Made by a program: the position numbers and the translations under genes
NCBI GenBank assembly: GCA_049516875.1
Contig: JBEKSS010000003.1
Coordinates: forward strand, 32,001-96,000
DNA: 64,000 bases
Reading direction: 5' to 3'
Origin: Candidatus Bathyarchaeia archaeon
Lineage (GTDB): Archaea; Thermoproteota; Bathyarchaeia; Bathyarchaeales; Bathycorpusculaceae
The notes under the pieces: generated by a model
What the model was told of the DNA's origin: nothing
What the model saw: the letters and a program-made list of their open reading frames with translations, nothing else
The model's database searches: none
Shown: positions 5,329-13,997 of the stretch, in pieces
How positions within the stretch are numbered: position 1 is the stretch's first letter
How the letters are laid out: the number at the start of each line of letters is the position of its first letter

Positions 5329-7497
5329 ATGAGTAGAGTAGTTCCTGGAATAATATTGGCATTGCTCTTAACCAACGTGTTTCTAGTGACTCTTGACGTC
5401 AAACCAGCCAAAGAAACCGCAACTCTAGCAGATAACATCGCATCGATACTTAACAACGTAAACTTCAACACAGGATCCTTGACAACCACACATTATGGAG
5501 TCATTTTCAACAAACTTCCTCTGAATGCTTACGATTCAACTACTAGCACGGACGGAACTGACAACTCCTTTGACTCAGCATTGTGGATCGAGAGGATGGC
5601 GCAAGTTGACGGTTACACCTCTGCAACCTTAGACGCAAATGCAAAAAATGCTCTGCAAAACATGGCCATGATAGGCCACATTCCCATAACTTACGACCCG
5701 CAGGCATGTTGGTTGGACTACCACAGGTTTATCTGCGAAGCTTTTGACTGGGCGCAGAGTTGGGGCGTATCAAGATGGGACACGCAGGCATGTTTCAATG
5801 AAGTCTTGGTTGCCTACCAGAGCCACGGCTCACCACTGCTCGGCTATCCAGGCTGGGCGTTCTCGTCTAGATACTACGATGAGTATGCCGAAAGTCTAGA
5901 CATTTTCAACAAGCTCAACGGATCAGATCAAGGTCTCTGGCAGGCTATAAACGACAAACATTGGAGCAGTTCCGCACAACTATACGGTTACACGGCTGGG
6001 AGCTCTATGTACGAGTGTGAGGCTGGACCATTTGCGTTTATCATCGCGTACTATCGTGCTACCCACGGCAACGACATTCCCTATTTCGACAGGATCGCAA
6101 CCGACTTGAGAACAAAGTTTTTGGCGAACGGATGGAGCAGCCCAGCGTGGGGGCAGCCTGGCATCGTTCAGCACGCTACTAGTAACCCTCAATTAAGATT
6201 GCAGAATACATTCATTGCCATAGCCGCCATGCAACTGTACTACAAAATTGCGCCTTGGCAAACCGAGTTTGTCAACATGCTGAATGGTACAACCTATCCC
6301 TCGGCATGGCAGGGCGCGTTGAACAGTCAACTCTTTGACGGAACCAAATTTGCAATGCTCTCTGGTCAAGCTGGTTCAGACGAAGCAAGTGCTGTTGGAT
6401 TGATGATGCTGTTCTTGGAAGGAATAATCCCTGATACCGGAAGCCTTGCAATGCCGATTTCGGAAGAAAGGTACGAGGACACATTGTCTTTCACGCCAGC
6501 CTCCAACTTCAACTATGACTCGAACAATCACAGAATAAGGATTCCAGTGTGGGCTGGAACATTGAAGTTTCAGTTCGGCTCGCAAATCACGTCGGCAAAC
6601 TTTCCTTCCGACGGAGTATACGAAGTCCAATTCAGTAGTGACTGGAACACTGTAACCAGCGTAAACGAGGTTTCTTCACTTTCACCGAATTTCTACTACA
6701 TGAATCGTTCTTCTCAAACACCGTCCACATACAATGCCACAGTTAATGCTTACTGCAGCCAAGAGAACAACTATGTTAATGTGAGCTTATCGATCGACGG
6801 TGTATCGTCCGGCTTTACTCCGTGCACATTTGCTGCGTTGACGGGGACACATACTTTTACAGTGCCAAACACCGACCAAGATGGCCATCCATTCACGCAA
6901 TGGAATACTGGCCAAACAAGCACTACTGTGACCGTTAGTTCAGGCGGAACATATACGGCGTACTACAGAGCACCTGTGCATGCCGTCGCCATCACGGATG
7001 TTACATGTTCAAAAACTGTTGTTGGTCAAGGCTACAGCCTAAACGTGACCGTTACAGCAGCAGACTTGGGCGACTACCCAGAAACGTTCAACACAACGAT
7101 CTATGCTAATGCGATGGCCATATACGTGCAGGCGGTGAACCTGGAAAACGGCGCGTCAACAACACTCTCCTTCGCCTGGGACACGACGAACTTTGCTTAT
7201 GGCAACTACACCATAAGCGCTTATGCTTCGCCTGTTCTAGGAGAAAACGACACAACAAACAACACTTGCGTTTCCGACGTTCCAGTCCATGTGGGCCTTC
7301 CTGGCGACATGTCCAGCACAGTACCAGGCGTTTATGACGGAATTGTCAATATGAAAGACATAGCCTATCTGGTAGTGAAATTCAATACTTTTTCAGAGAA
7401 AGCCGGCTGGGATCCAAACGCGGACGTCAACAACGACGGCCTCTGCAACATGAGCGACATAGCAATAGCCATCGTCAACTTCAACAAACACGAATAA
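5329..7497 (+). CDS. Secreted multidomain protein: putative helical glycosidase-like domain, Ig-like/CARDB domains and C-terminal dockerin-like domain
   Basis: Signal peptide; Trp/Tyr-rich N-terminal ~380 aa; CARDB-like HAVAITDV...TVVGQG...ETFN; duplicated Ca-binding loops GD...DGIVNMKD and ADVNNDGLCNMSD. Confidence 0.8.
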   Translation: MSRVVPGIILALLLTNVFLVTLDVKPAKETATLADNIASILNNVNFNTGSLTTTHYGVIFNKLPLNAYDSTTSTDGTDNSFDSALWIERMAQVDGYTSATLDANAKNALQNMAMIGHIPITYDPQACWLDYHRFICEAFDWAQSWGVSRWDTQACFNEVLVAYQSHGSPLLGYPGWAFSSRYYDEYAESLDIFNKLNGSDQGLWQAINDKHWSSSAQLYGYTAGSSMYECEAGPFAFIIAYYRATHGNDIPYFDRIATDLRTKFLANGWSSPAWGQPGIVQHATSNPQLRLQNTFIAIAAMQLYYKIAPWQTEFVNMLNGTTYPSAWQGALNSQLFDGTKFAMLSGQAGSDEASAVGLMMLFLEGIIPDTGSLAMPISEERYEDTLSFTPASNFNYDSNNHRIRIPVWAGTLKFQFGSQITSANFPSDGVYEVQFSSDWNTVTSVNEVSSLSPNFYYMNRSSQTPSTYNATVNAYCSQENNYVNVSLSIDGVSSGFTPCTFAALTGTHTFTVPNTDQDGHPFTQWNTGQTSTTVTVSSGGTYTAYYRAPVHAVAITDVTCSKTVVGQGYSLNVTVTAADLGDYPETFNTTIYANAMAIYVQAVNLENGASTTLSFAWDTTNFAYGNYTISAYASPVLGENDTTNNTCVSDVPVHVGLPGDMSSTVPGVYDGIVNMKDIAYLVVKFNTFSEKAGWDPNADVNNDGLCNMSDIAIAIVNFNKHE

Positions 7498-10904: not shown

Positions 10905-11870
10905 TTGAAAGCTACAGCCGTAGCGCACCCAATACAGGGACTGATAAAATATCATGGATTAAAGAATTCTAAGCAAAGAATCCCGTACCACGACAGCATA
11001 TCCGCATGCATCCAAGCCTTATCCACCACAACAACCGTTGAGACGATACGAGAATCAAAGAAAAACGAAATAACAATCAACGGGAGACAACCAGATACCA
11101 CCGAAAGGAAACGAGTCGAAACCGTTCTTAACAAGCTCAAGGAGCTGGCAGAGTTCTCAGGTAGCTTCAAAGTCGTCTCTCAAAATAGTCTTGAAACAGG
11201 CAAGGGCTTGGGATTTTCAGCCTCCGGTTTTGCAGCTATGGGCTTGGCCACAAAGGAAGCGCTTGTTCTTAATCTCGACGGTGTTTCGCTCTCAGGAATC
11301 GTCAGACTCGGAGCGGGTTCTGCCACAAGGAGTTTGGCAGGAGGCTTCGCAGTATGGTATGCCAACAGGAACAGCAGATCCTACGCTGAGCAGCTGGAGA
11401 CGCCAAGAAACATGGATTTTTCAATGGTAATCGTGCCCGTGCACTCCGACGTGAAGACTGACGAAGCACACGCCGAAGTGCTCAGTTCATGCCTTTTCAA
11501 AGCACGACTGAGGAACATTCGTGGATTGCTTGAAACGATGAAAGAGGCCATCAACAACGGAGACACTGCAACGATAGGCAAGCTTGCTGAAGAGGACACA
11601 CTAAATCTTCACGCGATAACGATGACAGGCAAATCGCACATGGTATTGTGGGAACCAGATACGGTCCGAATAATTAAGGAAATCATCCGAATGAGAGAAG
11701 AGGGAACGCCAGCGTGGTACTCGATGGACACTGGACCATCAGTCTTCATCAACACCTACAAGAGGACCACAGCGAAAATAGCCGAGCGATTCCAAGAAAT
11801 GGGATTTGCGAATGTATTAGTGAGCACGGTTGGCGAAAAGCCATTTCTAACCGGAAACCATCTTTTCTAA
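10905..11870 (+). CDS. mvaD: (Di)phosphomevalonate decarboxylase, GHMP superfamily
   Basis: AHPIQGLIKYHG, KGLGFSASGFAA, RLGAGSATRS and MDTGP motifs. Confidence 0.88.
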   Translation: MKATAVAHPIQGLIKYHGLKNSKQRIPYHDSISACIQALSTTTTVETIRESKKNEITINGRQPDTTERKRVETVLNKLKELAEFSGSFKVVSQNSLETGKGLGFSASGFAAMGLATKEALVLNLDGVSLSGIVRLGAGSATRSLAGGFAVWYANRNSRSYAEQLETPRNMDFSMVIVPVHSDVKTDEAHAEVLSSCLFKARLRNIRGLLETMKEAINNGDTATIGKLAEEDTLNLHAITMTGKSHMVLWEPDTVRIIKEIIRMREEGTPAWYSMDTGPSVFINTYKRTTAKIAERFQEMGFANVLVSTVGEKPFLTGNHLF

Positions 11871-13238
11871 GTTCGCGCCTTTGGTCTTTCTCCAGTTTCT
11901 CAGAGTCTTGATAAGTACGAACGGTACCCAACCGCAGATAATCATCAAGGTGCCAGGAAAAGCTCCAATACTGAAGGTCAGAATGAAGGCCTCGAAAATG
12001 GAGAACGATACGGTCATTCCCACAACCGATGCTATCGCCAATCGTTTCCCGTATTTCTTGAATGTCTGAATGGCAAGCAAACCTGCAAAGAAAAAGTCTC
12101 CCAGGCCCAAGCTCAGTATTAGAAGGCCAGTTCCAGTCCTAATCAATGGAACAAGCGGCAAAGAAACCAGCACAGGAAGACTCAGACTCACAGCAGCGTT
12201 TGCGGCCTGAACCATTGTTTTCGTTACTAAGACAAGAACTATGTCCATGCCCGTTATCAGGACGCCAAAAACTGCGGTAGTTTTCCAGTTAAACAAACTT
12301 GCTAGGTAAAGAGTGATCAAGATAGCGAAAACAAGACCGTAAACGTTAGACAGGTAATAAGTCCAGAGAAAACTGTCCCTCAAGAATACATATAACAGAA
12401 TGAAAACCGCCGGCGGTATGACGCCTACGTACCAACGCTTGTTGGACAGCAGATAACTAAACGTGTACAGTAGCAGGGAGTAAGAGAACAGGAAGAGCAC
12501 CATCAGAATTACGCTGAGCTGCCGAACGATGACTATGAGTGTGATCATGACCGCCATCAAGCCAACAAGCAAAACGGCATCCCGAACCCGAAACTCTGTC
12601 TCTTCAAACACTCCTTTGAGTTTGTTCTCTGTCTTCAAATTTAGAAACATAGAGGCGAATGTTACAGCAAGAAGAGTCAGAGGCATGGTTAGGTCAAAAT
12701 TAAATTTGTTGTTGAAATACCCGTCATAGGCCGTATACTGCAGATATGTTCCCGCAGAATCGTACAGAAAAGCGTCGATGTGAAGACTCGTCTCACCCGT
12801 ACCCTTAACTTGAAACGTCAACGTGACCAAAGTTCCGTTGCTGTCGACTGTAGCGTTTGGAGAAGTGAAGTTTATCGAAGCATAGACGTTACCCGCAGTG
12901 TTGTCTTTGACGAAGTCCGTAATGCCGAAGCCTTTGAACAAATCACCCTCTCCAACCGTTGCGCAATTGATCAAATTAGGATCGTAGCCCAATCTCATTG
13001 TGAACCCGTGAAGGTTGATTGTCCCCAAGGCGGTGATATTAACATTGACAGTAAACTTATCGCCAGAAACTGCCGAGTAGTTCATGATCACCAAAGGCCT
13101 CACAACCAAGGCTATCTCGTTGGTTTCGTCATCTGTTTCAGCTACTGCAAAGGCCGGCTTAACGGCTGACACCGTTAAGAAAAGGACAGCCATCAACAGG
13201 ATTATTGCAAAAACTGCGAGCTTCTTATCTTCCGGCAT
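11847..13238 (-). CDS. Cohesin-like domain fused to presenilin/signal-peptide-peptidase (GxGD, A22) intramembrane aspartyl protease
   Basis: Signal peptide; cohesin-like GDKFTVNVNI...YDPNLI...EGDLF...GTLVTLTFQVK; multiple TM helices with MD332...TKTM, LGLGD381 and a PAL-like PGT motif. Confidence 0.8.
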   Translation of the reverse strand: MPEDKKLAVFAIILLMAVLFLTVSAVKPAFAVAETDDETNEIALVVRPLVIMNYSAVSGDKFTVNVNITALGTINLHGFTMRLGYDPNLINCATVGEGDLFKGFGITDFVKDNTAGNVYASINFTSPNATVDSNGTLVTLTFQVKGTGETSLHIDAFLYDSAGTYLQYTAYDGYFNNKFNFDLTMPLTLLAVTFASMFLNLKTENKLKGVFEETEFRVRDAVLLVGLMAVMITLIVIVRQLSVILMVLFLFSYSLLLYTFSYLLSNKRWYVGVIPPAVFILLYVFLRDSFLWTYYLSNVYGLVFAILITLYLASLFNWKTTAVFGVLITGMDIVLVLVTKTMVQAANAAVSLSLPVLVSLPLVPLIRTGTGLLILSLGLGDFFFAGLLAIQTFKKYGKRLAIASVVGMTVSFSIFEAFILTFSIGAFPGTLMIICGWVPFVLIKTLRNWRKTKGANLEKMVSG

Positions 13239-13496: not shown

Positions 13497-13997
13497 TCAT
13501 GATTCTTGAGAACTTGAAGACGCCGAGCTCTTGTTGATCTCTTCAACGAATTTGCCAACCTTTGAACTGTACTGGCCAATCATCACTTCCTCTTTTCGTA
13601 AGAGCAAGAGTAGCGACTGGCGGGCGACCTGGAACTTCAGCCATGTACGCGAACACCTTTTCGCTCCCAGTCCCGTCGCCTGTTAGGAAAAAAGCAACTT
13701 TCCTGAAGCGATATTTTCTGGAAAAGATAGTTCTGACGGGAGTAGACATCTTCGTAGCGCAGACAGGTGTACCGATCGCAACGACATCGTAAATGGCAGG
13801 ATCTTTCTCTGCCTTCTTTATCACGTCAGCCGCTTGAAAGTGGCATCCACTCAGGACCTTAAGTAACCGAAAACGCCCATTCTGTTCCTCGTGTCAAAAA
13901 TCTCTTCGACATCGCACCGAAGAACCCGCGAAATCGTTTCAACAGCTTGTCTCGTGGTTCCCGTTCGGGAATAAAAACAAAAAACGCTTCACTTCAA
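13497..13997 (-). pseudogene. Degraded flavodoxin-family gene
   Basis: FYSRTGTTR N-terminal FMN loop; in-frame TGA at 13851-13853; frameshift into YDVVAIGTPV...STPVRT...KVAFF; second frameshift before KEEVMIGQYSSKVGKFVEEI. Confidence 0.8.

Follow-up and report, generated by a model that had tools for sequence, protein, structure and literature searches.

What might a cohesin do as part of an intramembrane protease? The question is raised by a 64,000-nucleotide stretch (here called the window) of contig JBEKSS010000003.1 from a Candidatus Bathyarchaeia archaeon, in which a single open reading frame (ORF) of 463 aa with an ATG start, on the reverse strand at 11847..13238, encodes a signal peptide-like N terminus, a beta-sandwich ectodomain and a polytopic membrane domain. 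An earlier note, made from the sequence alone, had described the product as a cohesin-like ectodomain fused to an intact GxGD protease of the presenilin/signal peptide peptidase (SPP) type. The reading reached here, with moderate confidence, is that of a surface cohesin fused to a divergent, catalytically intact protease of family A22 (presenilin/SPP), in which the cohesin docks dockerin proteins at the membrane; signal-peptide cleavage, topology, protease activity, substrate orientation and dockerin binding enter this reading as predictions.

The ectodomain is a genuine cohesin by sequence and by fold. PF00963 (Cohesin), the sole Pfam family found in the protein, matches residues 53-164 with 37.4 bits (cut-off, 24.1; E = 3.5e-9). 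Homologs of the full protein number 778 at E ≤ 1e-3 (8000 candidates scored), and PF00963 is carried by 107 of 120 among the homologs listed. A profile of 37 full-length homologs matched solved cohesins in the PDB (4ums, E = 1.9e-4). In the full-length AlphaFold2 (AF2) model (mean predicted local distance difference test [pLDDT] score, 72.5), a helix at residues 3-25 and a low-confidence linker precede the ectodomain, which has a pLDDT of about 60-86. The highest-ranked Foldseek matches of this domain were cohesins, headed by that of Archaeoglobus fulgidus (2xdh; E = 2e-9, TMt 0.77, root mean square deviation [rmsd] 2.7), and VIA-align superposed it on many dockerin-bound cohesins with Z scores of 14-16.7, rmsd of 2.1-2.9 and 129-141 aligned residues, the best being 4uyq_A (Z 16.7, rmsd 2.2, 132 aligned). 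Identity to solved cohesins is 11-20%. The strings that the earlier note had picked out as cohesin hallmarks are all present (GDKFTVNVNI at 59-68, YDPNLI at 85-90, EGDLF at 97-101 and GTLVTLTFQVKGTG at 135-148), and its assignment of the N-terminal domain to the cohesins is borne out by the above-cut-off PF00963 match and the Foldseek and VIA results. The ectodomain is acidic (D+E 15.5 versus K+R 6.8 in the fused homologs), is joined to the first transmembrane (TM) helix by few residues in the AF2 models, and evolves faster than the TM domain (mean pairwise identity, 50% versus 68%).

Homology of the membrane domain to A22 surfaced only with a TM-domain profile that took in cohesin-free relatives. 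A precomputed A22 family was attached to none of the 120 homologs listed, and the full-length profile found only cohesins in the PDB, plus weak REST-corepressor noise at E > 1. At E ≤ 1e-3, a search with the TM domain (residues 176-463) returned 123 representative clusters, of which many are proteins of 255-290 aa that lack an ectodomain. A Pfam scan covered 37 of the 123 representatives: 4 passed the cut-offs of A22 families (PF04258 with 67.8 bits in P0235 and 25.9 in P0144; PF06550 with 33.0 and 31.2 in P0151 and P0179), 16 had sub-threshold A22 matches, 11 had no match and 6 had unrelated weak matches only. With a profile of 32 TM domains, the 10 PDB sequences matched at E ≤ 10 were all A22 proteins, including PSH (2e-11), SPPL2a (3.4e-6), PS1 (2.1e-5) and PS2 (3e-5), and the alignments matched D, GxGD and PAL position by position. 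Alignment with hhalign of the TM profile to six canonical Bathyarchaeia PSH gave 97.7% (E = 1.9e-12, 236 columns).

The predicted structure points in the same direction. An AF2 model of the TM domain, built from an 85-sequence alignment (pLDDT 94.9; predicted template modeling score 0.91), has nine helices; TM6 is followed by a short helix, a beta-hairpin immediately precedes GLGD, and the catalytic aspartates lie on helices 318-338 (D332) and 379-396 (D381). When this predicted model was compared with solved structures, Foldseek ranks 1-25 were all A22, with the next matches at a probability of 0.13 or less; the best was inhibitor-bound human SPPL2a (9k93; E = 5.7e-7, TMq 0.70). VIA gave Z 22.5 for PS1 (262 aligned), 22.3 for SPPL2a (257 aligned; lowest rmsd, 3.4) and 16.6 for PSH. 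Hidden Markov model (HMM) E-values thus favor PSH over SPPL2a, whereas fold scores favor SPPL2a. The ESM Atlas supplied leads only: Bathyarchaeota hypothetical proteins (0.93) and a cluster (0.92) in which 24% of the members carry PF04258.

D332, G378, G380, D381 and T430 are invariant in all 85 relatives, down to about 20% identity, and P428 is conserved in at least 90% of these sequences; D332 is also invariant in 37/37 fused homologs. The GLGD motif aligns with GMGD of PSH, GFGD of SPPL2a and GLGD of PS1. The motifs reported earlier (GMD332IVLV, LGLGD381 and PGT at 428-430) are in place, and the codons given for D332 (12243-12245) and D381 (12096-12098) are correct. Judged by profiles and predicted fold, the TM domain is a divergent member of the A22 family with intact catalytic residues; the earlier view of a presenilin/SPP-type domain with both aspartates and a PAL-like PGT agrees with the profile search, hhalign, the 85/85 conservation and Foldseek.

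The N terminus looks like a Sec-type signal peptide, with a K-rich n-region, an approximately 18-residue hydrophobic h-region and a KPAFA/VAE c-region. The cleavable signal peptide proposed previously holds as far as this layout is concerned, which is kept in 37/37 aligned fused homologs; cleavage itself is inferred. As the signal peptide and ectodomain precede TM1, the start of TM1 would lie outside. In the 37 fused homologs, mean K+R is 15.1 in predicted inside loops versus 3.6 in outside loops, the tail from residue 450 onward holds 3.0, and inside K+R exceeds outside in 84/84 further family members. N-glycosylation sequons number 6.2 per 154 aa of ectodomain versus 0.2 per 278 aa of TM domain in the same 37 proteins. 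An N-out/C-in topology is predicted, which leaves the TM6-7 loop outside, and the SPP-like orientation advanced in the earlier note is upheld, as a prediction, by this charge bias and by the sequons in the ectodomain. Passages of PMC2947513 give N-out/C-in with an outside TM6-7 loop for SPP and the opposite for presenilin, and state that membrane topology could be related to substrate type.

Canonical PSH of other Bathyarchaeia show the reverse bias, with K+R of 19.5 on the N-tail side (a figure that includes the long basic TM6-7 loop) versus 0.7. In a class-wide sample of 201 genomes, 56 had a strong match of the protease family (E < 1e-40), 23 had canonical PSH and 8 had both. These 8 genomes (G132, G144, G186, G078, G138, G150, G153 and G171) carry a canonical PF06550 PSH (L109-L114; ~310 aa, YD / GLGD / GLP) beside the SPP-oriented family. 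Coexistence indicates that the window-type family and canonical PSH are paralogs, and their opposite charge bias suggests that one cell may hold both a presenilin-like and an SPP-like A22 protease.

The distribution of the fusion bears on what the cohesin contributes. The locus was compared across 80 of the relatives in 285 species genomes, whose titles are nearly all Bathyarchaeia or Bathyarchaeota, with two Acidobacteriota bins. The two Acidobacteriota-titled contigs (L044 and L052) carry a Bathyarchaeia-type gene beside that for archaeal ribosomal protein P1 (L044 also P0 and L1) and are probably mis-binned archaeal contigs. HMM mapping distinguished 15 cohesin-fused forms, 18 plain forms (267-322 aa) and 47 with two extra helices. 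The last (within L060-L108) have about 63 additional residues forming two hydrophobic helices in the cytoplasmic TM3-TM4 loop, an 11-TM protease variant with catalytic motifs intact. Whichever its form, the protease gene has a PF02598 SPOUT methyltransferase gene on its upstream side in 74 of the 80 loci, and ribosomal P1-P0-L1 genes on its downstream side, P1 being found in 75; loci without the expected SPOUT or P1 neighbor are mostly at contig ends. Because the three forms occupy one conserved locus, they are orthologs.

A cohesin HMM run over all ORFs of ≥60 aa in the 80 loci matched only the 15 fused genes, and the idea of a split gene was rejected, as no cohesin ORF neighbors the cohesin-free forms. 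No longer fusions (812-2315 aa) were found, which is weak evidence. The fused forms share one junction, DGYFNNKxxxD (37/37), in which G173, Y174, F175, N177 and D182 are invariant and which continues into the M-x-F-D sequence that opens the plain forms; standalone orthologs begin M[YN]FD..MPLTLF. On the TM-domain tree, fused forms fall into three groups among plain forms. A single clade of fused forms (one origin, no loss) was rejected by the approximately unbiased test (p = 7.5e-5), for which the group was defined once the first tree (40 rows) had been seen and L075, most insert-form rows and the PSH outgroup were excluded. On this protease tree the cohesin is a gain whose presence changed at least three times, with one gain followed by losses as the simplest reading. 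The fusion is not recent, since a 443-aa relative with 36% identity can be aligned through the cohesin region. Absence from most orthologs and the repeated switching of its presence indicate that the cohesin is an accessory add-on and not part of the core mechanism.

In the genome that carries the window (a 2.43-Mb assembly with 97.5% completeness), this protease family is represented by one gene, beside two M50 genes, one rhomboid and one A24 gene; no match to PF06550 and no SppA/S49 was found in it. Dockerins (PF00404) are matched 21 times in this genome and cohesins 6 times. The proteins with dockerins start with signal peptides and bear the dockerin mostly at the C terminus; among them are C25, S8 and C39-like peptidases, a polysaccharide deacetylase, NosD/beta-helix and PQQ-propeller proteins and a solute-binding protein. 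Two classes of dockerin are present: about 6 are canonical two-repeat modules, and class B comprises about 12 proteins (e.g., L120-L131; 82% mean identity) with a degenerate first Ca-loop (GDVSGTTPGVYDG), encoded on contigs C2, C6, C10, C11 and C14. In one protein of 454 aa (L117), the dockerin lies at residues 43-92, directly after the signal peptide. The cohesins closest to that of the protease in this genome are those of L133 and L132 (62 and 54 bits with the family cohesin HMM), small proteins built of a signal peptide, a cohesin and a C-terminal TM anchor. The fusion occurs in 14 of 151 genomes sampled from the window's family, once in interrupted form; all 14 have at least 2 dockerin matches (median, 19.5), versus 84 of the other 137 with at least 1 (median, 1). 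The window itself contains a secreted-looking ORF of 722 aa at 5329..7497 on the forward strand, 4.4 kb from the protease gene. It had no Pfam match at E ≤ 1e-3 and no tblastn match in the 80 related loci, and it ends in a class-B dockerin that aligns with the other 11 class-B modules (PF00404, 20 bits, below the cut-off).

In the favored reading, a Sec signal peptide would place an acidic, probably N-glycosylated cohesin outside the cell, ahead of nine helices predicted to run from N-out to C-in. D332 on TM6 and D381 in the GLGD of TM7 would form the water-activating pair, and by analogy with SPP the enzyme would cut N-in (type II) helices, either signal-peptide remnants or signal anchors. 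The SPP-like orientation and the lack of SppA in the genome would make the clearing of N-in helices its most economical job; in the 201-genome sample, a strong protease-family match was accompanied by SppA in 5 of 56 genomes, versus 55 of the 145 without such a match. The core enzyme is a single-copy syntenic gene in this order of Bathyarchaeia, cohesin-free in most species, to whose N terminus, predicted to be extracellular, a cohesin was added in one dockerin-rich sublineage. The cohesin would most likely bind Ca-type dockerins of the genome's approximately 20 secreted hydrolases and beta-helix/propeller proteins; it would thereby dock or retain these proteins next to the enzyme at the membrane and take no part in catalysis.

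Several points weigh against this reading. Pfam and NCBIfam scans of the window protein matched no A22 model at E ≤ 10 (PF06550, PF04258 and PF01080 included). The classic letters are altered, with MD for YD and PGT for PAL; YD (TM6) and PAL (TM9) are named as signature letters of presenilin and SPP in passages of PMC2947513. Relatives mostly read x-D in TM6 and P-A-T at the PAL position. Of the two signatures only the D and the P are left, with a conserved T; the altered letters are taken to mark a divergent subfamily with a variant signature, and the catalytic residues are not regarded as lost. The N123 sequon sits where one of the predicted beta-strands of the cohesin ends, and a glycan there, if the site is glycosylated, could hinder a binding face. 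Two genomes without the fusion are dockerin rich (G301 and G318, with 28 and 29 matches), and a fused congener (G279) has only 2; moreover, as the dockerin counts come from kin (about five genera), the Mann-Whitney p value overstates the link between fusion and dockerins. The complementarity with SppA is partial and lineage tied, 5 genomes having both and 90 of the 145 neither. Lastly, the rule that N-out enzymes cut N-in helices is an analogy derived from eukaryotic enzymes.

Other explanations were weighed. The cohesin could, as the earlier note suggested alongside a regulatory role, be a substrate-recruiting exosite that captures N-in-anchored dockerin proteins and feeds the anchor to the active site for selective release or maturation, a possibility to be taken seriously but an improbable one. 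A cohesin-dockerin handshake that selects clients, so that held exoproteins have their N-in anchors or signal peptides cut by the adjacent protease, is likewise considered improbable. The short cohesin-TM1 link would seat a bound partner at the membrane, the predicted orientation suits N-in anchors, the dockerin of L117 directly follows an N-terminal hydrophobic segment, and the ectodomain layout of SPPL2 is comparable, with a computed structural match to SPPL2a. Against recruitment, the rarity of the cohesin among orthologs and its changing presence argue that the core function is independent of it; signal peptides of the dockerin proteins inspected look ordinary and cleavable, the dockerins of these proteins, which reach 1652 aa, are mostly at the far C terminus, and even the N-terminal segment of L117 ends in an AFA/A site. 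The cohesin fold might instead serve without dockerin binding, as a glycosylated cap or gatekeeper like nicastrin or as a binder of S-layer, glycan or a neighboring cell. This is more doubtful still: the three conserved sequons and acidity of the ectodomain, its modest Pfam score, its low identity to solved cohesins and its faster evolution would fit such a role, but the genome has many dockerins, fusions were found only in dockerin-bearing genomes (14/14) and the closest structural matches are dockerin-binding cohesins. Archaeal cohesin-dockerin pairs verified to bind, as described in a section of PMC9012536, also count against it.

Doubts about the membrane half carry far less weight. It is very unlikely that the TM domain is a pseudoprotease whose only role is to fix a surface cohesin in the membrane as a polytopic anchor. 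Other cohesins of this genome use a simple TM anchor, which shows that anchoring is needed, and the classic YD and PAL letters are not kept; nevertheless, the aspartates, GxGD glycines and T430 are invariant in 85/85 sequences, most of which come from proteins without any cohesin that would require anchoring, the TM domain is better conserved than the cohesin, and its fold is closest to that of inhibitor-bound SPPL2a. Next to no credence is given to an A24 prepilin/preflagellin peptidase or an unrelated nine-TM protein with chance motifs. A24 enzymes also use D...GxGD and the genome has one A24 gene elsewhere, but A22 fills Foldseek ranks 1-25, and no A24 protein is among the PDB profile matches at E ≤ 10 or the Foldseek matches listed. 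The A24 identity was rejected on an hhalign comparison of the family profile with the A24 (PF01478) peptidase of this genome, which returned a probability of 0.14%.

Among known systems, human SPPL2a and SPPL2b (MEROPS A22B) have the same order of parts, with a signal peptide, an ectodomain and a nine-TM GxGD protease that is N-out/C-in (in the window protein, by prediction), and SPPL2a is the best Foldseek match of the TM domain despite 17-19% sequence identity; this agrees with the SPPL2-like layout suggested in the earlier note. The ectodomain of SPPL2 is a PA domain, whereas that of the window protein is a cohesin, so the architectural likeness is convergent. The window protein also differs in its MD and PGT in place of YD and PAL and in its archaeal host. 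PSH/MCMJR1 (PF06550; 4hyc, 4hyg and 4y6k) is archaeal, has nine TM helices with the catalytic D on TM6 and GxGD on TM7 alike, and is the strongest sequence relative with a solved structure (E = 2e-11), but it is a single-domain protein of opposite predicted orientation, and PF06550 misses the window protein. The presenilin of gamma-secretase shares the catalytic fold, and with nicastrin a large ectodomain above the membrane-embedded active site; there, however, the ectodomain is a separate subunit and cofactors are needed, whereas the window protein has its ectodomain fused in cis and a predicted reversed orientation. Gamma-secretase is described as N-in and as cutting type I substrates in passages of PMC2947513. 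Anchoring scaffoldins and the L132 and L133 proteins likewise combine an N-terminal signal peptide with a single membrane-held surface cohesin, but the anchor of L132 and L133 is one C-terminal TM helix and that of the window protein a conserved nine-TM protease domain. Clostridial anchored cohesin proteins use SLH domains, according to a section of PMC9012536. The A. fulgidus cohesin 2xdh is also archaeal and non-cellulosomal and has 16% identity to the ectodomain; as crystallized it is a soluble module without a protease, unlike the window protein.

Features of the fusion gene, in window coordinates
Feature	Position	Strand	Basis or remark
Whole coding sequence: signal peptide, cohesin and nine-TM A22-like protease	11847..13238	-	463 codons plus stop
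Sec-type signal peptide (or N-terminal anchor), residues 1-31	13146..13238	-	Sequence features; AF2 helix 3-25
Cohesin beta-sandwich ectodomain, residues 40-180	12699..13121	-	PF00963, Foldseek, VIA
Sequon N67-I-T69	13032..13040	-	Conserved in 35/37 homologs
Sequon N123-F-T125	12864..12872	-	Invariant, 37/37 homologs
Sequon N134-G-T136	12831..12839	-	Conserved in 36/37 homologs
Fusion junction DGYFNNKFNFD, residues 172-182	12693..12725	-	FNFD corresponds to the M-x-F-D start of cohesin-free orthologs
Nine-TM A22-type (presenilin/SPP-like) aspartyl protease domain, residues 181-452	11883..12698	-	AF2, Foldseek, VIA, profiles
D332, putative first catalytic aspartate, TM6, motif GMD	12243..12245	-	Aligned to YD aspartate of PSH
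GxGD motif G378-L-G-D381, TM7 start, after predicted beta-hairpin	12096..12107	-	Aligned to PSH/SPPL2a/PS1
P428-G-T430, PAL-motif position, TM9 start	11949..11957	-	Aligned to QPALLY of SPPL2a and PAL of PS1
Basic C-terminal tail, residues 453-463, predicted cytoplasmic	11850..11882	-	Charge count

A convergent MVD-like gene (diphosphomevalonate decarboxylase family) occupies 10905..11870, its 3' end overlapping that of the protease gene by 24 bases (11847..11870), and this neighbor is present in some related loci only. Between the protease and SPOUT methyltransferase genes lies an ORF of 93 aa (13543..13824, reverse strand) without a Pfam match; it had a tblastn match in 1 of the 80 related loci (L034) and may not be a gene. 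Public metagenome contigs with DNA near-identical to 11847..13238 come from peat, wetland, freshwater sediment and soil (20 rows, 14 studies), and 3 of the 20 rows were flagged as possible sources of the window DNA.

The protease clade is already partly recognized, but the cohesin fusion is not: some of the plain relatives are labelled “presenilin-like A22 family membrane protease” by one source, whereas public names of fused homologs are only “cohesin domain-containing” or “hypothetical,” so that censuses of domain architecture would miss them. The earlier statement that characterized archaeal homologs are single-domain proteins fits the canonical PSH found here, with the qualification that the clade's cohesin-free relatives are already auto-annotated as A22 by that source. 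Its expectation that no cohesin-protease fusion had been described agrees with the literature search, which found no paper combining a cohesin domain with an archaeal presenilin or intramembrane protease (supplementary domain lists lay outside the search) and none combining signal peptide peptidase with dockerin; papers naming Bathyarchae* and dockerin included none on this topic by title and abstract. Archaeal A22 proteases of both orientations may already be covered by Raut, Glass and Lieberman (2021, Proteins 89:232).

Archaeal presenilin/SPP homologs serve as structural and enzymological models. In vitro work on them uses eukaryotic or viral substrates, as portrayed in part of PMC10679502, and a table in a 2022 review (PMC9263693) lists the function of the Haloferax A22 protease as “Unknown.” A fused docking module together with approximately 20 dockerin-tagged secreted proteins yields a short list of candidate partners and may help to find substrates of archaeal A22 proteases. 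Bathyarchaeia hold two A22 lineages of opposite predicted orientation, one presenilin-like and one SPP-like, which bears on the origin of the two eukaryotic branches, and their SPP-like lineage appears to have reached an SPPL2-like layout of ectodomain and nine TM helices independently. If the client-selecting handshake were true, a single polypeptide would couple secretion with release and surface display, the presenilin/SPP superfamily would gain its first built-in, sequence-addressable substrate exosite, and the dockerin proteins would be leads to natural substrates, the first for any archaeal A22 protease.

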